Position numbers and translations under genes: made by a program. From Candidatus Hodarchaeota archaeon (GTDB taxonomy: Archaea; Asgardarchaeota; Heimdallarchaeia; Hodarchaeales; Hodarchaeaceae), in assembly GCA_016840035.1 (NCBI GenBank), contig JAEOTC010000038.1:32001-96000 (forward strand): a stretch of DNA of 64,000 nt. Direction: 5' to 3'. Numbering within the stretch: position 1 is the stretch's first letter; each line of letters starts with the position of its first letter. Under the pieces are notes generated by a model. That model saw nothing but the letters and a program-made list of their open reading frames with translations, made no database searches and was not told the origin of the DNA. This document shows, one piece after another, positions 3,780-21,990 of this stretch.

Positions 3780-4748
3780 CTAGCTAATATTATTAGCAAG
3801 TTTAAAGCCAAGTACTTGCCAAGCAAGGACATCTTTAATCATGATATTCGCCGTTGATATAGGATCTTTCCTGATAAGACGTCTAAGACCATTCATGACT
3901 CCTAGCATTATACGTATCTCAGGTTTGAGTAATTTAAATTCAGGAATAATCGGATTAATTTCTCGCATTGCTGTAGTATAGATGAAATCTTGATCATCGA
4001 GTTTCCCTTCCGAGTGTGCTTTACTAAATATCTCCCACATCTGGTTAAAAACATGTTCAGCCTCATCTAAAACAGTTTTTGCTTCATTGTCTATGATACA
4101 ACCAAAATGACATAAACTAATGGTATTATAATCAATATTTTTAAGTTTTTGAATTGTAGAATGGAAATCTTTCTTATTACAAAACGGAGGTAAAATCGGA
4201 GGTAAATATGCGTTATCGCCAGCTTTCATACCGATTGCATCCCCGACAAAGATGTTTTTATTCCTTTCATCGAGGATGGAGATGTGATCGGAAATATGTC
4301 CAGGTGTGTGATAAATCTTTAGAGAGATCCCACCAAGATCAACAGTGTTTCCCTCACTCAAGGGGGTTACATCCTTGATATTCTGAAAACTCCCCTTTTG
4401 ATCAAAAACGTTGTTAAATGACTGATCTTCAAGCAAAGGAATAGCCTCAGTATGGGCAAAAACCTCAATTGCTTTCTGTTCTTTTAACGCTCTTTGTCTT
4501 AATATGGGAACTCCCTGACAATGGTCCCAATGAGAGTGTGTCAGGATAATATAATCTGGGGGAAAGGCGTCTAGCTGCTTTAATGCTTTAATAATCCGTG
4601 GTGCGCCTGATCGTGTCCCACTATCAATTAAACAAGACTTCTCTGCTTGAACTAAATATACTCCTCCCGCGCCTGCAACATCAACATAGCCAAAATCAAT
4701 TAGAGTGGTATTGGAATTTATAGGTCCTGGTATCCTCATTCCAGTCAA
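3780..4748 (-). CDS. MBL-fold metallo-hydrolase
   Basis: THSHWDH, TPGH, GDA and CHFG motifs. Confidence 0.88.
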   Translation of the reverse strand: MTGMRIPGPINSNTTLIDFGYVDVAGAGGVYLVQAEKSCLIDSGTRSGAPRIIKALKQLDAFPPDYIILTHSHWDHCQGVPILRQRALKEQKAIEVFAHTEAIPLLEDQSFNNVFDQKGSFQNIKDVTPLSEGNTVDLGGISLKIYHTPGHISDHISILDERNKNIFVGDAIGMKAGDNAYLPPILPPFCNKKDFHSTIQKLKNIDYNTISLCHFGCIIDNEAKTVLDEAEHVFNQMWEIFSKAHSEGKLDDQDFIYTTAMREINPIIPEFKLLKPEIRIMLGVMNGLRRLIRKDPISTANIMIKDVLAWQVLGFKLANNIS

Positions 4749-5015
4749 AATTTCTCCTCCTTAAACATAAAACATTAGAAATTTGGTTATCAAAATCCAC
4801 TCATGGAATTTAACCTATATAAAACTTGGGAACAAATTGCTTTTCATGGGATCAGAGATAATCTTGACACATTTTCTTACCCAAAAAGCTATACTCATGG
4901 GTGGGGTAATTCTTGACCAGAGACTCCCCAAATGATTGTAACGGAACAAAAAAGAGAATAAAAGCAGCTGCACCTGCTACTAGCCCACGAAGAAAATCCA
5001 TCTTAACCAAAGCAT

Positions 5016-6479
5016 CTATTTCCTGTGATCTGAATAGAGAGATTTAATATACTCAATAGGGGGTTTCCAATCATCAGGAAGAGGACTTTTATAGGGGGTC
5101 CGAGTGATCTTTTTGTTAAATTCGCTTTTTGCTTGTAATACTAGCTCAGGATTGGTAAATAATTCAAAACTAGCTAGAGCTAATACTTTTGCTGCATATA
5201 ACATCCCTTTATGTCCAATACTCATTCCTGCTTGGGCAACAAGTTGCCAAGAATGGCCAGGTGTCCCTAATATCGTACAAGTGGTTGCAAATTGGGCTAA
5301 AGGTGTAACCCAGCTTACATCCCCTACATCTGTAGAACCAGGTAGCGTTACACCCCTACTTACAAGAGGTATAACTGTCTTATGTAATTTAACTCCTCTT
5401 AATTTCTCTAACTCTTTCTGCATATCGATAGGGTAAGTTGCAAGAATTCTGTCGAAATAACCTTTCTCAAAAGTTTTGATAATACTATCAGCATAATCCT
5501 GATCACTTTGATCGTACGTTGGTGATCCGATCTGGTTCATCTTTTCATAAAGCAAGTCTTCTAGCGTAAGATTTGGGAGAAGGTTCGCTGATCCTCCCTG
5601 AAAGTCAATTTCAACTTCTGTTTCTGTCATAAGAGCGGCTCCCTTTGCTACTTTGACAACACGAGGATAGATCTCTGCCAATTGGTCAAGCTTAGCAGCT
5701 CTTACGAAATACCATACTGCAGCTTCATCTGGTACAATATTGGGAGCTTGTCCACCTTTTGTGATGATATAGTGTAGTCTTGCATCTGGTATAAGATGTT
5801 CCCTTAAATAATTACACCCCACATTCATTAATTCTACTGCATCAAGAGCTGATCTTCCATGATATGGATCAGCAGCTGCATGAGCAGTTTTTCCTTTGAA
5901 ATTAAAGACGACAGAGTAAATTGCCTGAAAATTGGTTGTTACTACCATGTTAAAATCCCATGGATGCCAAGTCAAAGATATATCAACATCAGAAAACGCT
6001 CCAGCTTTCACCATCCCCCCTTTTGCATCCACATTCTCTTCTGCCGGACAGCCATAATATCGAATAGTTCCTTGAAAATCACCATTATCAAATGACTCTT
6101 TCAATGCTAAACACGCTGTAAGTCCTGCAACTCCTAATAAATTATGACCACAACCATGTCCAGGTGCACCTTCTTCAAAGGGCTTTTTTATTGGATCAGA
6201 CGTTTGACTAAGCCCAGGCAGTGCATCAAATTCTCCTAATATTGCTACAACAGGTTTACTTGTTCCATGACTTGCTATAAAAGCAGTAGGCATACCTGCT
6301 ATGCCTTGTTCAATCGTAAAGCCAGCTTCTTTTAATGTCTCTATTAAGAGATGGGAGGATTTTTCTTCTAATAATCCAATCTCTGCAAATCTCCATATAC
6401 TATCACTAATTTCAATGAATTTCTCTTTATTCTTTTCAATCCAATCTAGAAAATCCAAAGGCAAACCAATGACCTCCAA
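5016..6479 (-). CDS. M20 amidohydrolase, AbgB-like (p-aminobenzoyl-glutamate hydrolase subunit B family)
   Basis: GEFDALPGL, GHGCGHNLLG, CPAEE, GRSALDAVELMNVG, GSTDVGDVSW motifs. Confidence 0.88.
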   Translation of the reverse strand: MEVIGLPLDFLDWIEKNKEKFIEISDSIWRFAEIGLLEEKSSHLLIETLKEAGFTIEQGIAGMPTAFIASHGTSKPVVAILGEFDALPGLSQTSDPIKKPFEEGAPGHGCGHNLLGVAGLTACLALKESFDNGDFQGTIRYYGCPAEENVDAKGGMVKAGAFSDVDISLTWHPWDFNMVVTTNFQAIYSVVFNFKGKTAHAAADPYHGRSALDAVELMNVGCNYLREHLIPDARLHYIITKGGQAPNIVPDEAAVWYFVRAAKLDQLAEIYPRVVKVAKGAALMTETEVEIDFQGGSANLLPNLTLEDLLYEKMNQIGSPTYDQSDQDYADSIIKTFEKGYFDRILATYPIDMQKELEKLRGVKLHKTVIPLVSRGVTLPGSTDVGDVSWVTPLAQFATTCTILGTPGHSWQLVAQAGMSIGHKGMLYAAKVLALASFELFTNPELVLQAKSEFNKKITRTPYKSPLPDDWKPPIEYIKSLYSDHRK

Positions 6480-6653
6480 TTATGCTAATACAACAATTCA
6501 ATTGCAACGATATCACAATTTATCTTTGTTATTATATTCGAAATTGAAAGTACAGGTTTAAGATGAGAGAATATAGAAAAAAAGGAAAAGATGGTTGCTA
6601 GCTCTAAATACGAAAGTAGAATCCAGATCAAACCAAGAATGTATAAAGAAAAT

Positions 6654-7028
6654 TTAGTGGACGACTAAACTAGTTCCACAATTAGGACAAAATTTGGCTT
6701 GGGCAGTATTTTGGGTACCACATTTGATACAAAAGTTAGCGATTTGTCCAACTGGAGCTTGAGGAACGGGTTGAGCACCTGCGTAATATTGTTGACGAGG
6801 TTTGTTCTGGTAACGGATCGGTTCAATAATCCAATAGTATAAAGGACCACCAACCATAATGATAAAACCTACAAAGACCATCAACATCCAGATAGGATTA
6901 AGTAACGAGGAATCATAGCTTTGACCATATTCTTGTTTTCCAATAAAACTTAAAGCAGCAAAAATCGAAGCAACTAACCAAAAACCAAAACCAAAAATCC
7001 CAACACCAAATCCGCGTAAAAAACGCAT
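6654..7028 (-). CDS. Small membrane protein with C-terminal double zinc ribbon
   Basis: Two TM helices then FCIKCG...FCPNCG; ATG at 7028 follows GAGG, preferred to the TTG at 7106. Confidence 0.75.
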   Translation of the reverse strand: MRFLRGFGVGIFGFGFWLVASIFAALSFIGKQEYGQSYDSSLLNPIWMLMVFVGFIIMVGGPLYYWIIEPIRYQNKPRQQYYAGAQPVPQAPVGQIANFCIKCGTQNTAQAKFCPNCGTSLVVH

Positions 7029-7210
7029 TTCCTCATCATCCTCAAGTTTAGGTTTGTAACAAGTGGGGCTTATAAAAAGGTTTGGAGGGAAGGGGAAAAA
7101 AACCAAAAAAATATGTTGACCTTCGACTTCAAATTGTGAGTATAAATGGTGAAAAAGGAATCCAATTTGGATAAAATCTGTAAAATACCAACCAAACTCC
7201 CCAAAACAGA

Positions 7211-7286
7211 AAAAATGAAAAGAGATGCCGTTTAAACGGTAATCTCAATGCTTAGCTCACGTACCAGCTCTTTGTAGTGATATCTC
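7211..7286 (-). repeat. tfb 3'-end copy 1 (YKELVRELSIEITV*, TAA) plus terminator-like tract
   Basis: Aligns with 21971-22045; last 14 codons show 6 synonymous and 1 non-synonymous change; stop TAG changed to TAA. Confidence 0.9.
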
Positions 7287-7392
7287 CCTAGTAGGGTGAG
7301 GAATACGAAAACAAGAAGGAATTGAAGACTTCGTTTCCTCCCAAAGTATTTTGAATGATTACATAACTGATTCCAGTATTATCCGCTGACTG

Positions 7393-8253
7393 GTGAATGA
7401 TATGTGTAAATACTGCTATCAACACACTCGGAAAATGTGGTATCTCGAAAAAGAATCCTTTGATATTAGATCAGGTAGATTCATGAAAATATTGCCAGGT
7501 AGATTCAGAGAACTGTGGTATAATTTTTACGCTCCTAAGTTACAATCGTTTGTTGATGGAACTACTGGTGACATTGGAGCGAATCCTGATCGTGAACCGT
7601 ACAAGGGTTTACAAAAGATGTTTTACAATTATTTCGCAAAGAACTTTTTAGGTGGTCAGGTCGTTAGCTCCCTCGATGAAATGATGCAAGTCCTTGATCA
7701 AGCAGAAGATATTTTTGTTTCATATTGTTCTTGTAAAAAAACCGCTGGCGGGGGAGAAGATTATCGATGCCTTTTTCTTAATCACAACGCCCGATTTACT
7801 AGAAAACGGCAACTCCAAGGGAAAACAAACAATGAAGGACGTTTCATCGACAAAGATGAAGCAAAAGAAGTAATTCAAGAAAAACGTCGTTTAGGTCATT
7901 ATGGCACAGTTCTGTGGGGATTACGACCGAAAGTAGATTGCATTTGTAATTGTGACCAATATTGTGCGGGTTTATACACTCCCGAAATACGATGGGGATT
8001 ACTACCCTCCTTCACTATTTCTGTAATCGTCGATTCTGATAAATGTGATTCTGATTGTACAGTATGCCTTGATCTTTGTTACCCAAAAGCCATTACAAAA
8101 AATGAGGACGGATTAGTGACTTCAATAGATAATTATCTATGTATAGGCTGTAATCTGTGTGTTGAGAATTGTCCAAATGGAGTTTATGATTCTCAACCAC
8201 GTAAGATATATTATGACGCTTCTATTGGTAAAAAACGCGTATTAGAATATTGA
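7393..8253 (+). CDS. 4Fe-4S dicluster (ferredoxin-domain) protein
   Basis: CSCKK and CICNC clusters; CDSDCTVCLDLC and CIGCNLCVENCP ferredoxin motifs. Confidence 0.8.
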   Translation: MNDMCKYCYQHTRKMWYLEKESFDIRSGRFMKILPGRFRELWYNFYAPKLQSFVDGTTGDIGANPDREPYKGLQKMFYNYFAKNFLGGQVVSSLDEMMQVLDQAEDIFVSYCSCKKTAGGGEDYRCLFLNHNARFTRKRQLQGKTNNEGRFIDKDEAKEVIQEKRRLGHYGTVLWGLRPKVDCICNCDQYCAGLYTPEIRWGLLPSFTISVIVDSDKCDSDCTVCLDLCYPKAITKNEDGLVTSIDNYLCIGCNLCVENCPNGVYDSQPRKIYYDASIGKKRVLEY

Positions 8254-8290
8254 TGAAACTATAACAGAATGAGATAAAAACAACAAGATG

Positions 8291-8378
8291 AAAAAGAAAG
8301 GAGATACCGCCTAGACGGTAATCTCAATGTTTAGCTTGCGTACGAGTTCTTTATAGCGATTTCTCACGGTTACTTCGG
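8291..8378 (-). repeat. tfb 3'-end copy 2 (EVTVRNRYKELVRKLNIEITV*) plus terminator-like tract
   Basis: 79/88 nt identical to 21971-22058; 5 synonymous codon changes and one S-to-N change. Confidence 0.95.
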
Positions 8379-8469
8379 AAAATCCGAACAGCTATGCAAG
8401 TATCTCAAGGGTAGAGAGATGAGAAGATAAAGTTTATAAGATCTGAAGACTCCTAGAAATAGGATAAGT

Positions 8470-9063
8470 ATGAAAAAAAATAACCGATGTCTTCTTCAGC
8501 TTGTCATTCTAATAGTACTTATCTTGAATCTAATGACAGGGTTAAAACTAATCCGAGGAGGAGAGATGAAAAGGGATCAACTCGTCCAAGTCGAATTATT
8601 ACTATTTCTAAAGGCTGTTCCCATGGAAGATTATCCTACAGCGGTTTTCAGTGGAATTGAAGACTATCAGGTTTGGACTGGAAATGTAACGGTCAATGGC
8701 TCAGTCGCTACAAATAATGACCTCAAAGAAGCAGTTGTGACCCTCAAAAATCGAACGTCAACATTTCTTCACACGAATTTAACGCTAACTAAAGATACGG
8801 ACTACTTAGGTCCGAAAAATCTAGCCTACTTATTCGAAGTAACACTTAATAGTAATGAATATCCAAATGGGTCGTATACATTGTTTTTTCATTTTCTAGA
8901 TACCAAAGGTGCCGGAATGATTTATCATTGGGACATCAGGATAGCTAATGCTTCAGATCATCTCTCTCCAGCAATAGGCCTCCCTCTGAGTTTCCTCACA
9001 CTGTTTTCTATTATTACCATTCGTCGAAAAGTTCCACGACTATTCAAGGAAGAGAAAAAATAA
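8470..9063 (+). CDS. Putative exported, C-terminally membrane-anchored protein
   Basis: Hydrophobic N-terminal segment, beta-rich middle with N-x-T/S sequons, C-terminal TM followed by RRK. Confidence 0.6.
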   Translation: MKKNNRCLLQLVILIVLILNLMTGLKLIRGGEMKRDQLVQVELLLFLKAVPMEDYPTAVFSGIEDYQVWTGNVTVNGSVATNNDLKEAVVTLKNRTSTFLHTNLTLTKDTDYLGPKNLAYLFEVTLNSNEYPNGSYTLFFHFLDTKGAGMIYHWDIRIANASDHLSPAIGLPLSFLTLFSIITIRRKVPRLFKEEKK

Positions 9064-9120
9064 AGGAGAGAATACCTAGACGGTTATCTCAATACTAAGC
9101 TTACGTACAAGCTCTTTATA
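9062..9120 (-). repeat. tfb 3'-end copy 3 (YKELVRKLSIEITV*)
   Basis: 9076-9120 encodes a peptide identical to the TFB C-terminus with 7 synonymous and 0 non-synonymous substitutions. Confidence 0.93.
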
Positions 9121-9244
9121 AATGGAGTTCTCAATCTTTTATTATGTACTTGCACTTCGGCATGATTTCAGTCAGTTTTGAATGAGAATCCTGAAAAGGA
9201 TATAGTGAGGAAATTTTTCAAATCACGAAATACTCCATTCTTAT

Positions 9245-9451
9245 ATGCGTGAAGGAGGGATAATTGAACATTTGTACTATTCTCCAATATATATAGGAAA
9301 TTATCCTGATGGGGACTGGAATGAATCATATGAGCTTCACGATTATATAGGGGGTTATATTATGGGTGGAATGAACCCCACATGGTATTTGCATCCTGAT
9401 ACAGAGAACAGAGTTTATAAAAATCTAGATCAATGGGATGGACCTATTTAA
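9245..9451 (+). CDS. Short hypothetical protein or gene fragment
   Basis: 68-aa ORF with protein-like composition inside a cassette; no recognised motif. Confidence 0.35.
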   Translation: MREGGIIEHLYYSPIYIGNYPDGDWNESYELHDYIGGYIMGGMNPTWYLHPDTENRVYKNLDQWDGPI

Positions 9452-9698
9452 TGATCTTTAAAAGAGAGCTCATTTAAATTTAAAAAAAGAGAATAATAAC
9501 TATAATTTGTAGGGTTAATTAACCATATGTTCACATTTCAAATACAAAATAGTTCTCGTGGAAATCGTAAAAATGTGTGATTAATGCATTATATGATAAG
9601 TATAAAAGCAAATAAAGGACTAGAAATTACTAGTTTTTTTCAGTTAACTGAAAAAAATAAGAATTCAGTAAAAAAGACTTGAATGAGCTGAAAACAAG

Positions 9699-10763
9699 AT
9701 GAAAAGGGGAAAAAGAGGATATTATCTATTATTAGTGAATCTGAGTCTGGGGTTATTACTATTACTAAGTGGATGCACGCTATTACCAACGAGTGAACCA
9801 GAGGAGATATTATCATTTGATCCAAATACTGCAACCATATATAATCCGAAAACAAACATTTCAGAGAGTTTTTATGTCAGGAACATGAACAGGAGTGGTA
9901 GTACTTTCTACCATGAAGATCAAATGAAAATTATAGTCGGAGTAAGAGATTCTAAAGGACTTCCAGGAGTAGCTGTGAATTTACATTTGAGAGTTATCTT
10001 TGACTGGTATGGAAATACAGATATTGTAAATTTAACAGAAGAATTCGGCCTCAAAATGACCACTAATCAATCAGGAGCGGTGTGTTTGATTTGTACATAT
10101 AATCAATATACATGGCCTCAAGGGTCTTATACCACTGAAGGAATACTTGAGATTTCTTCTTCTCAGCTAAATAATACAAGAGGATCCTCTGGAAAGCTAG
10201 ATTTTACCTATTATCATAAAGAAATCACACGAAATTCAACAGTAGAGGGGGGGATAGCAGTTATAAATGCTTTAGAAAAAATGAATCTGATAGAAGAAGC
10301 CAGTTTACTCGGTGGGGAAGACAACCTATACCCAAACTGGAATAGTCAATATTATGAATACTACGATATTAATCAAGTAATATTAAACCAATCTACCATT
10401 GAATTCTATACTAATTATCGCCAGCAACCAAGAGTTGAAGTCTACTATGTAGCATGGACAATCCTGTACGAAGAAACGAATTTAACATACAATATCATCA
10501 GAAATAACTGGAGTACATATATTGGGGAAGATTATGGATCTTTACTGATCAGTGATGAATATCTTGGAGAGAATTGGCTAATAACTGAACCAATCACAAA
10601 AGTAAATCTTACAACAGGTTGGTTAGTCATGCAAATTTTATATATTGATTCATTCCAAGAACCACTAAACGGTTGGACAAGAGTAGTTTATCAAGTTAGC
10701 CTTGTAACCATAGATATGCAACTTCGATGGTTATTATCTAGTTCCTTTACAGCAATAGCCTAA
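9699..10763 (+). CDS. Putative lipoprotein / exported protein
   Basis: Basic N-terminus, hydrophobic core and LLSGC lipobox; many N-glycosylation sequons. Confidence 0.7.
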   Translation: MKRGKRGYYLLLVNLSLGLLLLLSGCTLLPTSEPEEILSFDPNTATIYNPKTNISESFYVRNMNRSGSTFYHEDQMKIIVGVRDSKGLPGVAVNLHLRVIFDWYGNTDIVNLTEEFGLKMTTNQSGAVCLICTYNQYTWPQGSYTTEGILEISSSQLNNTRGSSGKLDFTYYHKEITRNSTVEGGIAVINALEKMNLIEEASLLGGEDNLYPNWNSQYYEYYDINQVILNQSTIEFYTNYRQQPRVEVYYVAWTILYEETNLTYNIIRNNWSTYIGEDYGSLLISDEYLGENWLITEPITKVNLTTGWLVMQILYIDSFQEPLNGWTRVVYQVSLVTIDMQLRWLLSSSFTAIA

Positions 10764-10945
10764 AAATTCGGAATTAACTGAAGATACTTGAACTAAACAT
10801 TAATATGCGTGTTAACCGAGAGGACTGAAAAATTCCACATTTCTAGTAAGAAATCTTTTTTTTCCTTTATAGACTCGGGAGAATTGTTGAAACTGAAGAA
10901 TGAAACCTTGGATATGTGATTTAATCCCTTCCACCCAAAACGAGA

Positions 10946-11031
10946 AAAAAGAAAGGAAATCCCGTCTAGGCGGTAATTTCGACACTAAGTTTGCGTACGA
11001 GCTCTTTGTAGCGATTTCACAAAGTAAGTTC
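10946..11031 (-). repeat. tfb 3'-end copy 4 (NRYKELVRKLSVEITA*) plus terminator-like tract
   Basis: Aligns with 21971-22056; 4 synonymous and 2 conservative changes in the last 16 codons; further upstream it is decayed (in-frame TGA). Confidence 0.92.
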
Positions 11032-11170
11032 ATGTTTAGAATAAGAATACAACAATTAAGATATTTAATTGTTGAAAATCAAATCCTTCATTAATTCACT
11101 ATCGAATAGAAAATCACAAATAGGAGAGAGTAGATGTGAAATACGCTTCCTTTTGAGGGATGAGATAAAC

Positions 11171-12142
11171 ATGAATGATATAGAATTGCTGCTAGTTTTT
11201 GGTATTACAATACTCATTTCGTCAGGAATTACCTTTTTTATCCTCAGGTATTTCTTTGCTACACGACTGAAAGGTATAGAAAAATCATCTGATACAATCT
11301 CTAAAATATCTGAGGGAATGGTTCAACAATCTAATAGCTTCATTGATCTAATGAAAAACAGTCTTAATACGCTACAGACGGACGTAATGGGACAATTAAA
11401 AGAATTACGGGAAATGTCTCGGGATCTTCAGACTACTCAAAAAGATACTCAGAGCTCTTTCGAAAAATTTGTCAGTTTAGTACGTATGCGTCCCCAAACA
11501 AAAGGCGAAGTAGGAGAAGGTATCGTACGTTGGGTATTAAGTTCATTACCAGCAAATTCATGGAAAGAGCAAGTAACAATCTCCGGAGGACGGGTAGATT
11601 TTATAGTATATTTACCACCAGATCAAGAAAAAGTTCTCATTGATTCAAAATTTAGCTTTCCAACAGAATTATTAGAATCCGATAATCTAGTTGCTGCTGA
11701 CCAACAAACCATCAACAAAATTAATCGAGGGATAATCAAGAGAAGTAAAGAACTCGAGAAATATTTAGTCCCAGAGAATACAAATATCGGTTTTTTACTC
11801 ATGTACATTCCAGATATACTATTTTCCTACCTATCTGATACCACATTTAAAGAATTGACAGGGAAGAAAATTATTCCAGTTAATGTGTCAGGTCTTTTAT
11901 CAACTTTATTGATAATTTCCCGTCAAATTCAAGTATTTCGAATTGGCGAGGCTATTTCGCGTTTAGAATCAATCAAAACAACTTTCGACAGTGAAATTGA
12001 TGCTATTCAGAAGATAACTAAAACAAGTAAAGGTCAACTTCAGAAAGCACTCACAAACGTCGAAAAAATCGATGTTCAACTTGATTCCACTCGACGGAAG
12101 ATTTTTAGAGAGTTTGGATTAATTGAAGAAGAGAGTACTTAG
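11171..12142 (+). CDS. RmuC-family DNA recombination protein (TM, coiled coil, PD-(D/E)xK nuclease)
   Basis: N-terminal TM, coiled coil, KGEVGE...RVDFIVYLP...IDSKF and LMYIP motifs; ATG at 11171 chosen. Confidence 0.8.
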   Translation: MNDIELLLVFGITILISSGITFFILRYFFATRLKGIEKSSDTISKISEGMVQQSNSFIDLMKNSLNTLQTDVMGQLKELREMSRDLQTTQKDTQSSFEKFVSLVRMRPQTKGEVGEGIVRWVLSSLPANSWKEQVTISGGRVDFIVYLPPDQEKVLIDSKFSFPTELLESDNLVAADQQTINKINRGIIKRSKELEKYLVPENTNIGFLLMYIPDILFSYLSDTTFKELTGKKIIPVNVSGLLSTLLIISRQIQVFRIGEAISRLESIKTTFDSEIDAIQKITKTSKGQLQKALTNVEKIDVQLDSTRRKIFREFGLIEEEST

Positions 12143-12159
12143 GATTAAAGAGAAGGCTG

Positions 12160-12957
12160 GTGAATTTAATGAGTAATTTGAAAGATAAATCAAAAATTTG
12201 TCCATATTATCAAAAACCATGCTTATTAGAGAAGTGTCTTGCCTACAGTGGTGAGACTTGCCTAATTATTCCTTTGGGGAGATTAGAAAGGGAAACTACT
12301 ACAAAAGTGCCTGTAATCCTCAAGACTAAATCCATAAAAGAATTAGCAGAAAAACTTGCTGATTATTATTTGGAAAAATATCCCGATGGAGAAAATTATC
12401 GATATACTGACACTTCCCTTTTCTGGAGCAATAGAATTGGAGTGAAAGAAATCTATAACCTCCCTTCGGACATCCAAGAAAAGATTCAAGATGTGGAAAG
12501 ACTTGCAGAGGACATAACAGAAGATAGGAAAATCCCCGAAGAATTAAAGAGCCAAAAACCTGAGAAGATAGCAGAAAACATGGTCAAATGGGCAGAAAAA
12601 AATTTTGATATCACTAGATATGTATATTTTAGAAAATACTGGGGATCCAAAGGATTGCCCGAATCTTATTATTTTTCAGATAGATATCGGCCGAAAGCTG
12701 AAAAATGTGAGTTACTGGCTGAACAAAAATTAGAGGAAATTCGTGAAAAGAGAAAGAAGGAGAAAAAAGAGAAAGAGAAACAGCAAGCATTAGCTGAAAT
12801 CGATAATATCATTAAATGGTTAAAAGAGAAACGGTTGGTGAAGCTCTCAAAAGCGAATTTAAAGCTTTATTTTTCTGAAATAGGTATGAAGGTCTCTCCC
12901 ACTAATCGTCAGAATGTATACATAAGGGTAAATGAAATTTTAAAACAAGAAAAATAG
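12160..12957 (+). CDS. Hypothetical protein (Cys-rich N-terminus, two similar helical repeats)
   Basis: 265-aa ORF; CPYYQKPC...C...C; internally similar segments ending in FW/YW. Confidence 0.65.
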   Translation: MNLMSNLKDKSKICPYYQKPCLLEKCLAYSGETCLIIPLGRLERETTTKVPVILKTKSIKELAEKLADYYLEKYPDGENYRYTDTSLFWSNRIGVKEIYNLPSDIQEKIQDVERLAEDITEDRKIPEELKSQKPEKIAENMVKWAEKNFDITRYVYFRKYWGSKGLPESYYFSDRYRPKAEKCELLAEQKLEEIREKRKKEKKEKEKQQALAEIDNIIKWLKEKRLVKLSKANLKLYFSEIGMKVSPTNRQNVYIRVNEILKQEK

Positions 12958-13013
12958 GGGGCTAAGTGATAAAAGTGATAGACCTAGAAATTTATAGCGA
13001 TGGAGGGTATTAA

Positions 13014-13874
13014 TTGAGGAAAACTCGAAATAAGAGAAGTACAAGTTTACTATTAATTTATATTGCCATCAATCTTGGTTTAATTCTCCCAATGGGAGTA
13101 TCAAACGCACTAACCACGAATAGAACACAGAATGAATATACACGAACATTTACTTGTAATAAAGACGCGTATGTAGACTCTTCGAACCCAACTTCAAACT
13201 ATGCTAATGCAGATTTAGAGGTTTCAAACTCATCATATCGAGCAAGACGTTCTTATCTATCCTTCGAAATTCAAGACCTACCTTCAGATGCTGATATAAA
13301 AGAGGTAACATTCGGATTAAGCGTGAAATTCTTGCCTTATGATGACCATACCGTTCCATTAGATATTTGGAAAACAACTTACTTTGATGAAGATATCGTT
13401 ACTTGGGAAAATTGTCCTCAAAGAACTGTTCTCATGATACAAGTCGATATTGCTGAAAATAAACGCTGGAGCATTCCACTGGAAAACCATGGCATTACTG
13501 GAAATTTAAATCTCTATATTTGCTTATCCACCGATCTCGACAACTCTGCACCCATTACATTCGATTCTAGAGATGATATGTGGAATCCACCAAGAGTAGC
13601 AGTTACTTTCGAAGCATTATCCATCGATGAAAGTCCAAATGGAACAGTAGACTTAGTGATATTCCTAATTTTACTTGGTCCAATTGGAGGAATTGGATTA
13701 GCAATATTTCTAATGGTGAGAAAATCAAATAAGAGAAAAACAAGTTTTAGTATTGTATATCAAGAACCGAGAATTTCTCAAAAATCCGTAACTATAGACC
13801 AATTTTGTGGCCAATGCGGTGCTCCTCTGGATTCGACGAATGTTTTCTGTCCGTCCTGTGGGAAGAAACAGTGA
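13014..13874 (+). CDS. DNRLRE/CBM96-like exported domain with TM and cytoplasmic zinc ribbon
   Basis: Signal peptide, DAYVDSSNPTSNY...RRSYLSF...VTWEN...FDSRD pattern, TM, FCGQCG...FCPSCG. Confidence 0.7.
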   Translation: MRKTRNKRSTSLLLIYIAINLGLILPMGVSNALTTNRTQNEYTRTFTCNKDAYVDSSNPTSNYANADLEVSNSSYRARRSYLSFEIQDLPSDADIKEVTFGLSVKFLPYDDHTVPLDIWKTTYFDEDIVTWENCPQRTVLMIQVDIAENKRWSIPLENHGITGNLNLYICLSTDLDNSAPITFDSRDDMWNPPRVAVTFEALSIDESPNGTVDLVIFLILLGPIGGIGLAIFLMVRKSNKRKTSFSIVYQEPRISQKSVTIDQFCGQCGAPLDSTNVFCPSCGKKQ

Positions 13875-13914
13875 GGATATACTTCTTCGTGAGAAGTTAA
13901 AACTGGGTGAAATT

Positions 13915-15036
13915 TTGAATAGAACTAATCTCATGAAACTATTTCAGCTCGAGGATAACCAGGAAATTTTTGATTTAGCCCTTACTCCAAAATCGTGTGG
14001 TGGAGGTGACGAATTCAAACTTTTAGCCCTTTATGGGGATAAAATCATTGACTTAGCTCTGATCATTGATTTTTCAAATCAAGGATTCACAAATACGGGA
14101 GTAATCTCACCTGCTATTGATAGCTTTCATAATGAAGATGCTCTCAACGCACTAGGAAGATATCTAGAAATCGATCATTTGATGAATCCACTTGATAAAT
14201 CCAAACCGATCTCAGATGGTGATGTGAAAGAAGGAGTAGAAGCTCTTATAGGAGCAGCATATCAAAAACATGGATTAACCACATGTATCAAAATTGTTCA
14301 ACGTCTATACGAACAATCGGAATCTTTTTCTACAAAACCGGGAGAGGAAAAAGCTACTATCCTGACGGAAAACTTGGTAGGGATGTTACAAGAGTGGTTA
14401 GCAAGCCAAGGCCTTGGAATACCTGTTTATGAAGGGATACGAGTTGGAGGAACTAATGACAATCCATTATGGAGATGTCAAGTTTCATTTGAATATCATG
14501 GAGAAAAAGTCAAGGAGAAAAGTGATATTTTTTCCAATAAAAGACTCGCTAAGAAGAATGCAGCCCAGAAAGCATTGGTTGCATTAGGAATAAGGAAAGA
14601 TAATGTAAGCAGAGTTTTTGGGTCGATTCAGGAGGTGAAAATTCCTGAAACAGCAACTCAATCTCTCCAAGAACGAGAAATTCTCTTTACCAAAGGAGGG
14701 AGGGGAGGGCATTTTATCACAGGAGAGATACAACTAACAACTCAAACGGGTGAAACTGTCTTAGAATGGGCAGAAAAGAAGATAAAAAAGAATCCTTATG
14801 GAAGCTTGATTCTCCTAAGTGCACGTTTAGAGGAAATAAGTGGATCTTCTTGGTCAACTTCCTTGGAGGATCAGGAGCTAATTCTACTAAATATTGTTAT
14901 TGAAGACATGCCCTATTTTGAAATAGGAAAAGGAAAGTCAAAAACAAAAGCTAGAAAAGATGCTGCGCAAAAAATAATAAGATCATCTAATCTTATCAAA
15001 TGGATTGCTCAAAAATATTCAACCATACTAATCTGA
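13915..15036 (+). CDS. Ribonuclease III-family protein with dsRNA-binding domains
   Basis: LALYGDKII and VEALIGAAY RNase III motifs; dsRBD LQEWLASQG...KRLAKKNAAQKAL; second dsRBD-like GKGKSKTKARKDAAQK; TTG start after GGTGA. Confidence 0.8.
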   Translation: MNRTNLMKLFQLEDNQEIFDLALTPKSCGGGDEFKLLALYGDKIIDLALIIDFSNQGFTNTGVISPAIDSFHNEDALNALGRYLEIDHLMNPLDKSKPISDGDVKEGVEALIGAAYQKHGLTTCIKIVQRLYEQSESFSTKPGEEKATILTENLVGMLQEWLASQGLGIPVYEGIRVGGTNDNPLWRCQVSFEYHGEKVKEKSDIFSNKRLAKKNAAQKALVALGIRKDNVSRVFGSIQEVKIPETATQSLQEREILFTKGGRGGHFITGEIQLTTQTGETVLEWAEKKIKKNPYGSLILLSARLEEISGSSWSTSLEDQELILLNIVIEDMPYFEIGKGKSKTKARKDAAQKIIRSSNLIKWIAQKYSTILI

Positions 15037-15050
15037 AAATGTAAAAATTA

Positions 15051-15114
15051 AGGAGATACCATTTGATTGGTAATTTTCATACTAAACTTATGTATGAGCC
15101 CTTTGTAGCGATTT
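15051..15114 (-). repeat. tfb 3'-end copy 5, heavily decayed (NRYKGLIHKFSMKITNQ)
   Basis: GGAGATACC...GGTAATTT...ACTAAACTT...CTTTGTAGCGATTT is colinear with 21979-22042 without gaps; stop lost. Confidence 0.8.
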
Positions 15115-15374
15115 ACCAAGTAACTCCAATCACTGTTACTCGTTTAAGTCAGAAGGGTACAATATTTTCTTCCTGTGTGGAGAAACAATGGAAGATAAAA
15201 AAGTAAATAGCAATTAGCAAAAAAGGGAGAATTCTGTTGAGAATGTGGAAATTATGTTTTAAGATGGAGTTGAAGTAATCGCAAACAGAGAAGACCAGTT
15301 TAAGGGAGAAATATATTGATCCGTTTCCCGTACTCTTAGCATTAAGCATTCTACTAATTGTTATATATATAATA

Positions 15375-16115
15375 ATGCTAATTAATCCTTCAATTTATGA
15401 TCTACTAGAAATGAACAGATCAAATCCCTTTAGTATATTAACTAGTCTATTAATCCATGATCTAGATAATTCAGCACATTTAAGCGTGAATTTGGGGGCA
15501 TTATGGATTTTTGGTTATATTGTAAATATCCAGACAAATCGATTTCGAATGCTAATAACTTTCTTCGTATGTGGTGTATTAGCAAATATATCTACGGTGA
15601 TTTTTTCAGATTTAATAAACCACCTATTTTCTACTACATTCACAAATTGGGCTGTTTCTTCTAGACATTGGATCGGAGAGAATTTACGTGTTGTTCCATC
15701 ACCAAACGGAGGAGGAGCTTCAGACGGATTGATGGGGCTAGGAGGATTTGCTCTCGCTTTAGCTATTGACTTTTTAATTATTAATTTACATGAAGCTTAT
15801 AGAATCAGCCGTAATTCAACCAATAAATACCTAATAATACTAATTGATCGTCTGAATCAGTCAATTGTGGATACCTGTGTAAATTGTGTTGGGATTCTAG
15901 GAATTTTAGTTCTTTGGGCAGGATTAATTATGGATCTTGAAATGTTTTATTATGTTTTAACTTTTAATTACGCAGCAGCAAACGGAGAACTGTTATCTTA
16001 CCCGACATCAGACGGGCATCCGTTACTAGCCCATGCTTTTGGAGGATTGATAGGATTTATCATCGGGATCTATTATACTCGGTTCTTTCAAAAGGGGATA
16101 AGAAACTCCAATTGA
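15375..16115 (+). CDS. Rhomboid-family intramembrane serine protease
   Basis: HLSVN, GASDG (catalytic Ser), AHAFGGLIG (catalytic His); first TM lies upstream, behind an in-frame TAA at 15276. Confidence 0.8.
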   Translation: MLINPSIYDLLEMNRSNPFSILTSLLIHDLDNSAHLSVNLGALWIFGYIVNIQTNRFRMLITFFVCGVLANISTVIFSDLINHLFSTTFTNWAVSSRHWIGENLRVVPSPNGGGASDGLMGLGGFALALAIDFLIINLHEAYRISRNSTNKYLIILIDRLNQSIVDTCVNCVGILGILVLWAGLIMDLEMFYYVLTFNYAAANGELLSYPTSDGHPLLAHAFGGLIGFIIGIYYTRFFQKGIRNSN

Positions 16116-16185
16116 CATGAGAGTGAAATACAAACAAGAAAAAGATGAGGGGAATACTTTACTTTGGAAAGACTTCCAATCAAAC

Positions 16186-18042
16186 TCAGAAGGATTGGAA
16201 TCGGTTCCTTAAGACTGCACGAAGGTTTCTGAAAGAGCGAAACAGCTGCAAATTCGGAAGATGATGTTGATTGAACATGGCACGATTATCAAGAATTAAC
16301 CCTGTGGCTTGATCTACTTCAGAGCGAATAGCACGCCCCAAACACTGGCGGACCTGTGTGAAGAGATAGCGTTCTATTAACGTCCATTTAACAAAATGGA
16401 GATGACGATAACGGTTAAAATAGAGTCTATAAAGCAAATTGTACACCGGAGTGGGTGCTGGAAAGGGTAAGCCTATTAAAATCACCATTCGTACACGACT
16501 TCGGCCAGTTTGAGGATCTCGAACTTCGACTCCTTCACTAAACTTCCCGCCATAAACTGCAAGCACCACACTTGGGTCCCCATTCATTAATTCAGAGAGG
16601 AATGTAATCTGACCCTTTCTAGGTTCACGATAGAGAGACAGTTTTTCATTCAAATGCTCTTCTAAAAGTGGAAATAAGTCATCAAGAAACTCATAGGACG
16701 GGACAAAAACCCAGGTATGATCAGGAATTTCAAGTGCGACCTCCTTCACAGTTTTTGCACACCAACGCAGGAACTTCTTTGTACGATTACGATGAGAACT
16801 ACTCACCTGCGGATGAATAAATGCAGCCACAAGTAATTGCTGAATACGCGATTTAGGAGTAGGAACGTGGTGCAAATGGTACATATTCCACGGTTTTTTT
16901 TTTAATCCATAATAATGCGAGTAATATTTGAGATATTGAAAAGTGGCAGAAAACAGCACTGTCCGGGAGAACTGCCGATTCACATATTCAAAGATTTTCG
17001 ATGGATAGGGATCGAGTTGAACTAATCCTTCCTCCGTGTTCACCCAATATCGGCCTTGACGCTCAACAAAAGAGCGCACAGCCAGTAAAGCTTCTAGATC
17101 GAGAGGAGAAAGAGAATATCGAATACCTTTCTGATGAAGGAACGAATCGATTTGAGCTAGATAAGAACGATCAAGAGTTGGGGGACGTTTAACATACCCA
17201 TACTTTCGCTGGCATAGATTTTGCAGAATTTGCACAACAGGAAAAGCTCCGATTGACTCAACCAACGAAAGTTGTTTCCGAGTGACTGTAGCCTCTATTG
17301 TTGGCCCAAAATTGTGAGCTTCATCAATAATAGCGAATCTATGACTCCAACGAAAACCATAATCATGCGCTTTCCAGGTGAATCGAGACAGGGAGCGCTG
17401 GAGAGAGTGAGATTCCAAATATCCCTGCGGGAGTAATATAATATTAGCCTGAGGAAGCAAACGTCGGATGACTTGAGCAGGACAGCCATAGGGAGTGAGA
17501 AGCTCCTGAAAACCGGCAAATGATGAAGGACAGTGCTGGAGGGATATTTGAGGAAGAATCTCTCTTAGAGAGGATAACGGTAAAAAACGAGTTTTTTTCT
17601 TTCGAGGACAATGAAAACAGTCATTTTCAGGAGGTAAAGGACAGAGATCTTTGCTAGCGATCAAAGGAAGTAAGGTTAACTTGTCTGCCGGAGGGTTAGA
17701 GTAATATTCTTTCAGAGTTTTGAGAAACACTGATCTAAGTTGTGCTTTGGTTTTAGAAAAACACCAGAGTTGATATTCACCGGTCTTCATCAGATCCCAG
17801 AAGGCAGAAAACGCGGTGACGGATTTACCAAACCCAGTGTAGGCATTAATCGCAATTCGGGGATAAGCAGCAATTAAAGCTAGGACCTGTGCCTGACCAC
17901 GACGAAAGGAGGGAAAAGGAAAATGCTGGCGAATTTCAGGGGGCAATTCTTCATCCTTGAAAGACGAATGAGCCGCACCTGCTTTAAAAGCATCTGAATA
18001 ATAGATAAAAATTCCCTCAAGAAGGTTTTCCCGTATACACAT
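16186..18042 (-). CDS. Rad3/XPD/DinG-family SF2 helicase
   Basis: Q-motif FRRGQ, AYTGFGKS, Cys cluster, IDEAHN, FSAT, FVPSY, GKFSEGV, GLPFP, QCLGRAIRS; true start may lie inside the ORF. Confidence 0.85.
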   Translation of the reverse strand: MCIRENLLEGIFIYYSDAFKAGAAHSSFKDEELPPEIRQHFPFPSFRRGQAQVLALIAAYPRIAINAYTGFGKSVTAFSAFWDLMKTGEYQLWCFSKTKAQLRSVFLKTLKEYYSNPPADKLTLLPLIASKDLCPLPPENDCFHCPRKKKTRFLPLSSLREILPQISLQHCPSSFAGFQELLTPYGCPAQVIRRLLPQANIILLPQGYLESHSLQRSLSRFTWKAHDYGFRWSHRFAIIDEAHNFGPTIEATVTRKQLSLVESIGAFPVVQILQNLCQRKYGYVKRPPTLDRSYLAQIDSFLHQKGIRYSLSPLDLEALLAVRSFVERQGRYWVNTEEGLVQLDPYPSKIFEYVNRQFSRTVLFSATFQYLKYYSHYYGLKKKPWNMYHLHHVPTPKSRIQQLLVAAFIHPQVSSSHRNRTKKFLRWCAKTVKEVALEIPDHTWVFVPSYEFLDDLFPLLEEHLNEKLSLYREPRKGQITFLSELMNGDPSVVLAVYGGKFSEGVEVRDPQTGRSRVRMVILIGLPFPAPTPVYNLLYRLYFNRYRHLHFVKWTLIERYLFTQVRQCLGRAIRSEVDQATGLILDNRAMFNQHHLPNLQLFRSFRNLRAVLRNRFQSF

Positions 18043-18817
18043 GAGGAGTCAAAGGTTTGGAAGCTTTTTTCTTCCTCTTTTTTGACCGAAATTCTCGAAA
18101 ATAACCCCTGAATTCTACCACTTGATCATAGATCTTGTGTGTCCACGAATTTTGCCAGAAACGAATCCGATGTTCTTTGTGTTTTAATTTCGTAATATAA
18201 CAGAAATAGGGAAAGGCCTCCCAGGGGTGGGTTTGAAGCAACTTATCGAGATCCCCACGAAGAGTAACGAGAAAACCCATCTGTTTAAAGGAAGCGAGGG
18301 TAGCAAAACCCCTCAATCCACTCGGGGGAAGAAAACAGGTATCATATCCGTCAAAAACTAAAGCTGTAAGCATAGGATGTCTAAGAATAGGTTTGAAAAA
18401 TTCACGGTCGAAACTCTTGGCAAATAAAGTGTGTTTATCAATTCGACTTAGATAAGAGGTGGGAAGTTGCTTTTGAGATCGGAAATTAAGGACACGAAGA
18501 ATACGTTGAACCTGATAATCCTCATTGAAATCGTAATACAAAATTTGCCATGGTTTTGGACTGCTCAAGAGGCAGGAGGCAACGAGTTGAGCAAGAAACA
18601 GGCTTTTTCCAGCGTTTTCCGGACCAGCAATGATAATGGGCCATTGCCAGAACCAGCCACCTCGCCATGTTCGATCCAAAGACTGTAAGTACGTAGGGAT
18701 CGGTTTACGTGGAGGAAGGGAACTATCGCACGGAACAGCATGTTTAATAACTTGGGATAACAAATCATCTAAAGACTCGGAGTCATTCCTAGATGAGAGA
18801 GGTTTTTGAGAAACCAA
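18017..18817 (-). CDS. Divergent RecA/RadB (Rad51-paralogue-like) P-loop ATPase
   Basis: IPTYLQSLDRTWRGG, Walker A GPENAGKS, YYDFNE, Walker B LVFDG. Confidence 0.6.
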   Translation of the reverse strand: MVSQKPLSSRNDSESLDDLLSQVIKHAVPCDSSLPPRKPIPTYLQSLDRTWRGGWFWQWPIIIAGPENAGKSLFLAQLVASCLLSSPKPWQILYYDFNEDYQVQRILRVLNFRSQKQLPTSYLSRIDKHTLFAKSFDREFFKPILRHPMLTALVFDGYDTCFLPPSGLRGFATLASFKQMGFLVTLRGDLDKLLQTHPWEAFPYFCYITKLKHKEHRIRFWQNSWTHKIYDQVVEFRGYFREFRSKKRKKKASKPLTPHVYTGKPS

Positions 18818-19732
18818 AAATATACACCTTCCATTTACTAGATATCGGGTTGTCCCCTTTTATATCTGAAAAGATCTAGAAAATTGGAAGAGGACCCAAG
18901 CTCAAGTACTTTTGAATATATAAGGGAGGGGCAGAATCTAGTACGGTTCTCTCTTTAGTACCATTCAGGCAGCTATAGTAGGTGAGAATTGTGAATGACC
19001 ACTCACAATGATCTTCACATACGTAGCGAAAAAGTGCTAGTCGCTAGCATTTGCCTTGCACTTGCTTAAAGAGGCAGGTGGATAAACAAACACGGTTGAA
19101 AACCGATGTTGGCAAGTGAAACACGAGAAAGTAAGAGGAAAACTATCCAGTTATGGCAAACTGGAAAATTTAGTCATATTTTGTTCGTGAATGAACTGGC
19201 CCTGTTTCCTCAGAAGAATCAGGTAGATAAGGTTCAAGAATCAGATCAATTAAACCTGGTTCAAGGTACGGATACGAAAACACAAAGAACGCGGAATCCG
19301 CAAAGACAAACAATAACCCCAATCCAATACCCACCAGTATACCCTCTTCAACTGGGAAATACTGGCCTTGTCGACTCTCCAAGGTGGATCGAGTCACACG
19401 ACAAGCAATTCTTTACGAAGGAAACGAAAACCCCACACGAAGGGAAAATGGAACAATACCCAAAAGAACAACACCAGCGTTTAATAACAAAACAACCATA
19501 TTCGACTTACACTCACGGTCAGGAAGAGACGCGGAAGTGTGTGTCAGTCAAGCGGAGTGTATCCACTCAAAACCATATCCAACTACCACGGGAAAGCATC
19601 CCTCCCAAGGGTGCTAGGCCTCAGAAGAGATGTGTCGTAAGACAGGTCTCTTCTGAGGATCCCACGAATATGGGCCCTTGTCATGGTGACATGACCAGGG
19701 TAGGTAGATACTCTACCCAAGGTGAACTGACG

Positions 19733-21214: not shown

Positions 21215-21250
21215 AGTCACTCCCATTCCCTTCTCTTTTTTTTTCATAAC

Positions 21251-21838: not shown

Positions 21839-21990
21839 ATATTTACCTCCTTAGAGTCAATAAACGTGAAGGATTTTTAGAAACCCAAGTTCATTAGATT
21901 GTTAAATCCTAACAAAAAAGAAGAACATAATGAAATTAAGAAAAAAAGAATCCAAGCAATTATTATAATAAAAAAGAAAGGAGATCCCGT

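Follow-up and report, generated by a model that had tools for sequence, protein, structure and literature searches.

The tfb locus and its repeated gene ends

The window analyzed here, a 64,000-nt stretch of Hodarchaeales DNA, corresponds to G000:C184:32001-96000, where G000 is the window's own genome, the other G numbers used below denote genomes of relatives, C numbers contigs, and P numbers homologous proteins by which contigs are named. It contains a resident tfb gene encoding the transcription factor TFB (TFIIB), for which an exact-protein look-up found no record. The last ~54 nt of this gene constitute the functional member of a repeat family. The 45-nt segment at the gene end (21991-22035, with the stop at 21991) was found by an exact scan to recur at 7232-7276, 8311-8355, 9076-9120, and 10966-11010 (copies c1 to c4), always in one orientation, with the coding sense on the minus strand, and each copy differs from the resident by 6-8 mismatches per 45 nt. 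A profile of the five units, run against the 4.3-Mb genome, brought up c5 as the sixth member of the family, and beyond tfb and c1-c5 it returned no further member anywhere in that genome. The repeat exceeds the 45 nt, since beyond the stop it runs on for ~25-30 nt, a part that includes an imperfect palindrome and a T-run, and c2 and c4 extend deeper into the coding sequence. All copies lie within 15 kb. The features are as follows.

21991-23004, minus strand: resident tfb (TFB/TFIIB, 337 aa); ORF, Pfam TFIIB 4.8e-43 and Zn_Ribbon_TF 7.4e-20
21963-22064, minus strand: resident repeat unit, consisting of the tfb 3' coding end, a stop-spanning hairpin, and a T-run; nhmmer E 3e-31, fold
15041-15121, minus strand: c5, the most decayed copy; nhmmer E 1.8e-9, stop-equivalent near 15063
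10937-11034, minus strand: c4, core 10966-11010; four synonymous changes plus I>V and V>A, in-frame stop in the upstream extension
9047-9152, minus strand: c3, core 9076-9120; 7/7 differences synonymous; the stretch on which the initial annotation had been placed
8282-8387, minus strand: c2, core 8311-8355; longest coding homology, at least 23 codons
7203-7307, minus strand: c1, core 7232-7276; six synonymous changes, K>E, and TAG>TAA, followed by the ancestral downstream flank

An in-frame gene end at 21991-22035 is accordingly followed by five extra ends downstream, all on the minus strand, which is the arrangement that C-terminal replacement leaves behind. The copy c5 has lost its stop and marks the border of the unit that bears a predicted endonuclease gene, described below.

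The end of the repeat has a structural property of its own. Within the clade of G000, G020, G004, G014, and G002, a hairpin made up of the final four codons, the stop codon, and ~10 nt beyond it precedes a T-run. Pairing was found in 90% of cells, compared with 33-51% when the 3' partner was slid, and compensatory double changes were seen at three pairs. In c1 they couple the Val third position to the final base of the stop codon; in c4 they involve the third position of Glu, and in G004 that of Thr. In c5, the hairpin was kept through a compensatory CCA/TGG change. A number of the synonymous changes therefore have partners in non-coding sequence, which is another indication that every unit evolved while it served as a working end of the gene. 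The hairpin is missing from the repeats of G001, G013, G021, P0006, and C49, and since arrays of these other clades exist without it, it is not needed for array formation. An Rfam scan of positions 4000-24000 at E ≤ 1 gave no match, so that neither the repeats nor the GC-rich leader of the endonuclease gene is explained by a known RNA family.

Divergence of the copies as coding sequence

The initial annotation had listed the substitutions of each copy and had proposed that the copies diverged as protein-coding sequence. The lists for c1, c3, and c4 were reproduced codon by codon. For c2, the S>N replacement was confirmed, but the five synonymous changes that had been counted reduce to four codons, the fifth being the third base of the two-base change AGT>AAC by which Ser is replaced with Asn. 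In the columns that vary among tfb and c1-c4, the substitutions are distributed 2/2/13 over codon positions 1/2/3, and the third-position excess is significant in a formal test (Fisher p=2.7e-6). There are 4 non-synonymous codons, compared with 16.8 expected under random substitution, a number as low as this being reached in 0/20000 simulations. Taken one by one, the copies give P values of 0.0012 (c1), 0.014 (c2), 0.0001 (c3, in which all 7 differences are at third positions), and 0.10 (c4). The decayed c5 is random-like, with differences of 5/3/7 by codon position and 8 non-synonymous codons vs. 8.3 expected. Six further arrays, belonging to relatives, replicate the bias: their 14 displaced copies show 103 differences from the local resident, which fall 11/11/81 on the three codon positions and produce 12 non-synonymous codons vs. 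64.6 expected. Coding-type divergence can be regarded as shown.

The extra upstream part of c1, c3, and c4 contains first- and second-position changes as well as in-frame stops. The clean signal is therefore confined to the last 15-17 codons, the inner edges of the repeat are ragged, and the 45-nt frame has to be regarded as a favourable choice. If the rate of change at positions 1 and 2 is used as a gauge of the time spent in a non-coding state, then 4/120 such positions (3.3%) have changed, compared with 23/60 third positions (38%). An origin in place predicts a third-position difference of at most ~7%, which is incompatible with the 23/60 seen (p=1.8e-12), and duplication in situ is for this reason rejected. 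The difference between working and displaced ends is mainly synonymous and above what local divergence allows, as would be expected for C-terminal replacement. Comparison of the sequences supports the view that the fragments evolved as coding sequence during nearly all of their divergence.

Comparison with tfb alleles of relatives

Functional tfb genes from 12 genomes encode a near-invariant C-terminal peptide, and within the 45 nt their differences are synonymous only, with the exception of G001, in which the functional tfb has the same S>N as c2. Because the peptide is near-invariant, only synonymous drift is possible between lineages, and this accounts for the silent-site bias. When sister species are compared with the resident tfb, the protein is 98.8-99.1% identical (3-4 of 337 residues differ), and the DNA is 12-13% diverged. 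Functional alleles of sister species differ by 4-7 of the 45 nt, all synonymous, and the distance between copy and resident is 6-8 of 45. The nearest functional allele of c3 is the tfb of G002, from which it differs at 3 positions, as opposed to 7 from its own resident. It had been suggested that the fragments are former or foreign functional TFB C-termini and that the array is a record of horizontal exchange. Both suggestions are borne out by the agreement of these distances with those between species' alleles, the S>N shared with G001, the rejection of an in-place origin (p=1.8e-12), the position of c3, and the bias in the other arrays. The conclusion that the copies are diverged functional tfb alleles of foreign origin, brought together via horizontal exchange, is thus supported.

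The copy most distant from tfb deserves separate consideration. Between c1 and the most distal copy of G004, the differences by codon position are 1/1/6, and both of these copies adjoin a homologous Zn-ribbon ORF. Had the pair been non-coding since the species split, far more divergence at positions 1 and 2 would be expected (p=2e-6). The common neighbour together with the 1/1/6 pattern indicates that both were coding until recently, and they look like each lineage's native end. The flank of c1 has a motif in common with the flank of the G002 resident and the flank of the G014 distal copy. It is probable, therefore, that c1 is the native tfb 3' end of this lineage, recently displaced, and if so, the present tfb end must be imported.

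The proposal of the initial annotation that the resident tfb is a 3'-end chimera did not receive such backing, although the results are not counter-evidence because of their low power. Windowed divergence revealed nothing unusual in the last 36-126 nt of the resident tfb, and among tail-vs-body binomial tests of 55 allele pairs, in which power is very low with ~50 nt, none survived multiple testing. The tail divergence of G020 vs. the P0008 contig is nominally low (p=0.008) but not significant after correction, and no pair involving G000 was nominal. G021 was left out of the full-gene alignment on account of an internal TGA or frameshift. In comparisons of native and inserted ends over 45-54 nt, the distances are too noisy for grouping. 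It had also been anticipated that each copy would be nearest to a relative sharing its cassette, and this failed in two cases. The cargo of c3 is homologous to the cA cassette of G020, yet the copy there is not its nearest allele, and the neighbour of c1 is homologous to the neighbour of cC in G004, but the G004 copy is not the nearest allele. Considered as a whole, the earlier reading, which proposed no mechanism, is partly supported.

The tfb 3' end as an insertion hot spot

The copies are separated by cargo, and the variable region has a border on the distal side.

15375-16115, plus strand: cargo, rhomboid-like
13807-15036, plus strand: cargo, RNase III/dsRBD protein; ORF, Pfam
13014-13874, plus strand: cargo, Zn-ribbon membrane protein
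12160-12957, plus strand: cargo ORF
11069-12142, plus strand: cargo, RmuC; ORF, Pfam
9699-10763, plus strand: cargo, lipoprotein-like; ORF
8470-9063, plus strand: cargo, membrane protein; ORF
7393-8253, plus strand: cargo, Fer4 protein; ORF, Pfam
3780-7106, minus strand: distal border of the variable region; blastn synteny, Pfam
6654-7106, minus strand: Zn-ribbon ORF, common to the most distal G004 unit
5016-6479, minus strand: M20 peptidase
3780-4748, minus strand: metallo-beta-lactamase-fold gene

The relatives differ in the occupancy of this site. In G002 the site is empty, and the tfb stop lies ~200 nt from a homologue of the metallo-beta-lactamase-fold gene (window 3785-4747). In G014 there is a single unit between direct repeats of ~100 nt (-30 to +75); visual inspection of its sequence suggests two genes, a putative toxin-antitoxin pair. 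Between two and six ends make up the arrays of G020, G004, G001, G021, G013, G015, G017, the P0006 contig, and G020:C49. Homologous cassettes occupy differing array positions in G020 and G004, and the cargo of c3 is similar to the cA unit of G020. The cargo types in the window and in relatives include P-type metal ATPase, solute-binding proteins, esterases, and NosD-like proteins, together with a beta-lactamase-fold enzyme, RmuC, and an RNase III/dsRBD protein, and among relatives the orientation of the cassettes is mixed. According to this comparison, the tfb 3' end is a recurrent insertion hot spot within the genus. The literature on archaeal and Asgard mobile elements that was consulted contains no mention of tfb as an integration target (PMC8813620; PMC11529989; a 2026 preprint).

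No dedicated recombinase was detected at this site. The PF00589 (integrase) matches in G000, G001, G004, G017, and G020 are all on other contigs, and Pfam scans, which cover serine recombinases, gave no recombinase domain in 10 ORFs of the window and 20 ORFs of relatives' arrays. A shared identical core is also absent, the longest run invariant across the five units being 5 nt, and the edges of the repeat vary from -30 to -75 on the left and from +25 to +160 on the right. Taken together, the lack of an integrase, the lack of a core, and the ragged edges are more in keeping with recombinational repair than with the action of a site-specific recombinase.

The tfb-proximal unit and its LAGLIDADG gene

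The unit next to tfb spans 15122-21990, and its 16.2-21 kb part is richer in GC (0.42-0.49 vs. ~0.35 elsewhere). It contains the following genes.

21251-21838, minus strand: 195-aa ORF of no known family (no Pfam match), between tfb and the endonuclease gene
19106-21214, plus strand: free-standing double-LAGLIDADG homing-endonuclease-like gene, 702 aa, convergent with tfb; conserved residues ~230-702
18017-18817, minus strand: 266-aa ORF; AAA_25 at 21.3 bits, under the 27-bit cut-off
16186-18042, minus strand: XPD/Rad3-like helicase; Pfam Helicase_C_2 1.7e-25, DEAD_2 above threshold

The 195-aa ORF has homologues behind the tfb end of G020 and behind displaced copy cB of G004, and two other contigs carry one close to the endonuclease gene. 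The trio of helicase, 266-aa ORF, and endonuclease gene, which makes up the GC-richer part of the unit, is present also in G020, and in the P0019 contig the endonuclease gene is near a helicase and an adjoining 268-aa gene without Pfam matches.

The assignment of the 702-aa protein comes from its predicted fold. Residues 230-702 yielded an AF2 model with pLDDT 85.7, and the best Foldseek match of this model is I-DmoI (E 1.6e-5, TM 0.62 on the target). There are 42 PDB matches at E ≤ 0.001, and among the matches listed all are LAGLIDADG enzymes or LAGLIDADG-bearing inteins. The protein has two LAGLIDADG helices, each of which terminates in a catalytic acidic residue, and G131-D132-G133 and D225-D226, with the aspartates of both motifs, do not vary among 20 homologues with 39-82% identity. 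The window protein has no Pfam match at E ≤ 0.01, and the P0008 homologue has only a faint PF14528 record. According to the model, the protein is a monomeric, two-motif, LAGLIDADG endonuclease-like protein whose predicted fold, a pseudo-symmetric alpha-beta-beta-alpha-beta-beta-alpha double domain, resembles that of I-DmoI.

In 9 of 10 informative contexts the homologues are convergent to the tfb stop, namely in G000, G020:C137, G020:C49, G011, and the contigs of P0006, P0008, P0016, P0027, and P0020, and among these contexts the proteins share no more than 39-82% identity and the other neighbours differ. The homologue G003:C128 is not beside tfb, one further homologue was not counted as informative because its contig ends too early, and a shorter paralogue family resides elsewhere, in conserved synteny. 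The gene is present in only 9 of the 22 genomes of the genus. C-terminal remnants of it were found in G014, G001 (three times), G008, G021, and G013, at a distance of 90-190 nt behind either the tfb stop or a displaced copy, and those of G001, G014, and G013 end at a similar point (~residue 675). This common break hints at a preferred junction, which simple decay does not explain. Homing endonuclease genes pass through a life cycle of invasion, decay, and loss, and the patchy presence, the linkage to tfb, and the remnants fit it. From its position and conservation, the LAGLIDADG protein next to tfb is most likely the engine of insertion, although its tight linkage to tfb could instead mean a functional partnership.

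Two observations restrict what can be concluded for the remainder of the array. A homing-endonuclease ORF between the working and the displaced end is found in the tfb-c5 unit but not in the four distal units, and a profile search in six frames of 4700-16200 gave no endonuclease remnant in the cassettes behind c1-c5 (nothing below E 0.19), so that the arrival of those cassettes by homing is an extrapolation. Moreover, DNA identity between the endonuclease units of G000 and G020 is 70-78%, about the level seen in flanking core genes (77%), and the unit could therefore have been vertically inherited.

Proposed mechanism and alternatives

The best model for these data is, in our opinion, endonuclease-driven serial replacement of the tfb 3' end, with cargo, to which we assign a probability of roughly 0.6. 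It assumes that incoming DNA carries, in frame, the last ~15-25 codons of tfb and the terminator region. The imported copy would become the new working end of tfb, and the older end, together with its cargo, would be shifted downstream. The array tfb-c5-c4-c3-c2-c1 could then be read as a stack of formerly functional ends from diverged alleles, with c1 as the original end, and this reading would also give a presumed order of arrivals. It is proposed that the I-DmoI-like LAGLIDADG enzyme cuts a tfb end that is free of the element, and that repair copies the element from the donor, for which the tfb body would serve as the left homology and the displaced copy as the right. The process would amount to homing with co-conversion of the cargo, and older units would drop the endonuclease gene and retain the cargo. 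The debatable point is c5, which adjoins the endonuclease unit and is nevertheless the most decayed copy, which a simple stack in which the nearest is the youngest would not predict. One may speculate that a copy beside the active enzyme is perhaps selected to lose the target.

Foremost among the alternatives, although an unlikely one, is exchange through homology only. It assumes that repeats of a donor array recombine to give a circle with one tfb-end repeat, that the circle enters the conserved tfb end of another cell by a Campbell-type event of homologous recombination, without a dedicated enzyme, and that the endonuclease gene is a passenger. The repeat boundaries that are ragged on both sides, the absence of an integrase from the arrays, and the cassettes behind c1-c5 without a trace of endonuclease all agree with such a process, and since the repeats include native non-coding flank and are thus derived from chromosomal loci, this also counts for it. 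However, the occurrence of the LAGLIDADG gene at the tfb stop in 9/10 contexts and of its remnants after copies is left unexplained. The units are, furthermore, 82-87% identical over ~100 nt with exact runs of at most 20 nt, which makes them a poor substrate for unaided recombination.

Site-specific recombination in trans is less probable still, and we consider it doubtful. Here, the repeats would be attachment sites of a recombinase encoded elsewhere, e.g., the host's Xer-type tyrosine recombinase, and the system would resemble Xer-exploiting elements or an integron with the integrase outside the array. The imperfect palindrome across the stop codon in repeats of the G000 clade and the several cassettes that are single ORFs are consistent with this, and a conserved tyrosine recombinase is available in each genome, with a second one in G000 on C244. 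Yet a recombinase gene is neither in nor beside any array examined, there is no identical core (5 nt being the longest invariant run), the boundaries are ragged, and arrays form without the palindrome in G001, G013, G021, P0006, and C49. The compensatory changes in the palindrome point to an RNA hairpin and not to a protein-binding site.

It is very improbable that the copies arose by local tandem duplication of the tfb end, with the silent bias kept in place via translation or via gene conversion from the resident. The copies do lie within 15 kb in a single orientation, and the hairpin is kept even in the decayed c5, but models of in-situ origin were rejected in two tests (p=0.0055 and p=1.8e-12). 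No ORF of at least 50 aa runs over any copy, in-frame stops occur just upstream of c3 and c4, and the cargo between the copies is unrelated sequence. Since the copies are not nearer to their own resident than to the alleles of other species, there is also no concerted evolution.

An assembly artefact, in which a metagenome assembler would have joined strain alleles through the conserved tfb end, is scarcely credible, even though the bin consists of 293 contigs at 4% contamination and the same samples hold related strains with other tfb ends (loose ends 22022 and 22062, which probably belong to the tfb genes of other organisms), because exact runs between copies are too short to mislead a k-mer assembler, comparable arrays exist in at least 8 other assemblies, and independently assembled contigs from three runs bridge 7044-8367 (c1 and its cassette), 10199-11302 (c4), 14429-15376 (c5), and 21695-22299 (the tfb stop) without a difference. 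The read evidence consists of short Logan contigs of ~5x from four runs of one marine-sediment study, and the three read-contig joints, having sides of 21-25 nt, are untrustworthy.

Significance and comparison with known systems

These data show that in Asgard archaea, horizontal exchange extends into the coding part of a core information-processing gene, and they make the route of exchange concrete, as an endonuclease-marked hot spot with no need for an integrase. They also carry two warnings, namely that tfb-like fragments downstream of tfb should be annotated as scars and not as genes, and that tfb 3' ends may mislead in phylogeny. If the endonuclease model is true, it would provide a new family of natural rare-cutting enzymes with a known candidate target, it would explain the spread of metal pumps, toxin-antitoxin pairs, and nucleases among Hodarchaeales, and it would extend to archaeal chromosomes a mechanism known only from fungal mitochondria. 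To our knowledge, C-terminus-replacing mobile ORFs have so far been described only in those mitochondria. Hodarchaeales are among the closest archaeal relatives of eukaryotes. A broader interpretation, which we advance tentatively and at somewhat short of even odds, is that Hodarchaeales possess a chromosomal homing system of LAGLIDADG protein, XPD-like helicase, and ~270-aa ORF that repeatedly overwrites the C-terminal codons of the essential general transcription factor TFB. The outcome would be a reservoir of accessory and defence genes, integron-like but lacking an integrase, that moves between species, and the system would be the prokaryotic counterpart, conceivably the forerunner, of the fungal mitochondrial mobile ORFs.

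Some similarities to integrons are evident, as short units of diverse accessory function, often single ORFs, are placed between repeats bearing an imperfect palindrome. However, the tfb arrays have neither intI nor attI (PF00589 matches are absent from the window and from every array), their repeat is part of a host gene, the orientation of cassettes is mixed in relatives of the tfb array, and a palindrome of the attC type is not present at every boundary but limited to one clade of arrays. Tandem accretion is also known for integrative elements that share a single attachment site, located at the 3' end of a tRNA or protein gene, and restore the gene end. The tfb arrays are similar to these in the direct repeats of a gene 3' end in the same orientation, in incoming DNA that keeps the gene intact, and in the location of older units farther from the gene. 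They differ in having no nearby integrase, no common identical core, and variable repeat edges.

I-DmoI represents the monomeric double-LAGLIDADG homing endonucleases of archaeal rRNA introns and inteins. The predicted fold of the tfb-linked protein, with both motif aspartates conserved, resembles this type. In contrast, the tfb-linked gene is free-standing, outside any intron or intein, and its product, in which ~470 residues are conserved, is much bigger than these enzymes, carries an additional helical domain at either end, and has a sequence similarity below the Pfam threshold.

The closest parallel to our model is found in mobile ORFs (mORFs), which replace gene C-termini in fungal mitochondria, as shown for atp6, atp9, cox2, and nad3 of Glomus sp. 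(PMC3630166), with atp6 of Allomyces macrogynus as a further case (1994 study, via PMC3630166). The inserted and native ends differ there mostly by synonymous changes, and horizontal transfer was inferred (PMC3630166). Both systems have the same order of gene core, in-frame inserted C-terminus, LAGLIDADG ORF, and displaced native C-terminus, in both the ends differ strongly in DNA and little in protein, and in both a horizontal origin is proposed and there is no integrase. The differences are that the tfb case is archaeal and chromosomal, with an essential transcription factor as the target, and that it is serial, with six ends, kilobases of unrelated cargo, a helicase, and a 266-aa ORF weakly similar to AAA-ATPases. 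In addition, the predicted endonuclease gene on the tfb side is convergent and separate instead of being an in-frame fusion. On balance, the mechanism at tfb is likely an archaeal, serial, and cargo-bearing form of endonuclease-borne C-terminal replacement.

The endonuclease gene and its companions

The predicted LAGLIDADG endonuclease gene, convergent to tfb, is accompanied by an XPD/Rad3-like helicase gene and an ORF of ~270 aa, both in the source genome and in its relative G020. The similarity of the ~270-aa product to AAA-ATPases is sub-threshold only. On a third contig, where the endonuclease is only 42% identical, a helicase gene lies nearby, as does a 268-aa gene that is a possible counterpart of the ~270-aa ORF. 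The three genes may constitute a single functional module.

Loci with the LAGLIDADG gene, helicase gene and ~270-aa/268-aa gene
window 16186-21214
L031:9189-14251
L060:224-7025

Across homologues, which range from 387 to 752 aa in length, conservation is weak over the ~230 codons that open the 702-aa endonuclease ORF (window 19106-19790). These codons lie where the GC content of the region peaks (0.48). The real start might be located further downstream, and the leader is possibly non-coding; Rfam gave no match in this stretch. A family of shorter LAGLIDADG paralogues (~410-430 aa, ~40% identity) was also observed. Their loci, which lie away from any tfb gene, show conserved synteny, and the family could represent a domesticated or differently targeted relative.

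Loci of the shorter LAGLIDADG paralogues
L057, G008:C52
L058, G002:C96
L059, G015:C411

Arrays, remnants and cargo in related genomes

The simplest array, that of G014 (L033:3283-4200), consists of one ~0.9-kb unit flanked on both sides by ~100-nt direct repeats; it contains a putative two-gene toxin-antitoxin pair, judged by eye from the sequence, and 26 residues left over from the C-terminus of the endonuclease. In G001 (L035, G001:C11:50000-65000), the repeat unit of ~200-220 nt takes in the tfb end, a spacer of ~85 nt and the endonuclease gene's final ~28 codons. The endonuclease remnants in G001, G014 and G013 are all cut short at much the same point, around residue 675.

The protein encoded as cargo immediately before c5, one of the displaced tfb ends, is RNase III-like and has a dsRBD (window 13807-15036), and the G004 array carries a fragment homologous to it (L032:1812-2495). 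On another Hodarchaeales contig, that of P0016, a gene with a Piwi domain (Argonaute-like) and a helicase gene stand behind the tfb-linked endonuclease gene (L042:3700-5136). The hot spot at the tfb end may gather defence genes.

The tfb 3' end

The source genome encodes three more TFB paralogues, 38-47% identical (contigs C112, C2 and C229), all of them free of repeat copies of their 3' ends. Sequence agreement between the tfb body and contigs of the same sediment samples ends at window 22022 and 22062, within or just before the last 45 nt of tfb, beyond which the contigs differ. The samples probably contain additional strains or species whose tfb ends are different.

The tfb stop codon lies inside a hairpin, in which the first ~10 non-coding bases pair with the last four tfb codons, followed by a T-run.

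Stop-spanning hairpins
window 21961-22017, resident tfb end
window 7202-7258, displaced copy
window 8281-8337, displaced copy
window 10936-10992, displaced copy
window 15033-15089, displaced copy

Compensatory changes link the non-coding partners to silent codon positions and to the third base of the stop codon. The hairpin with its T-run looks like a terminator hairpin, a type of signal that is unusual in archaea.
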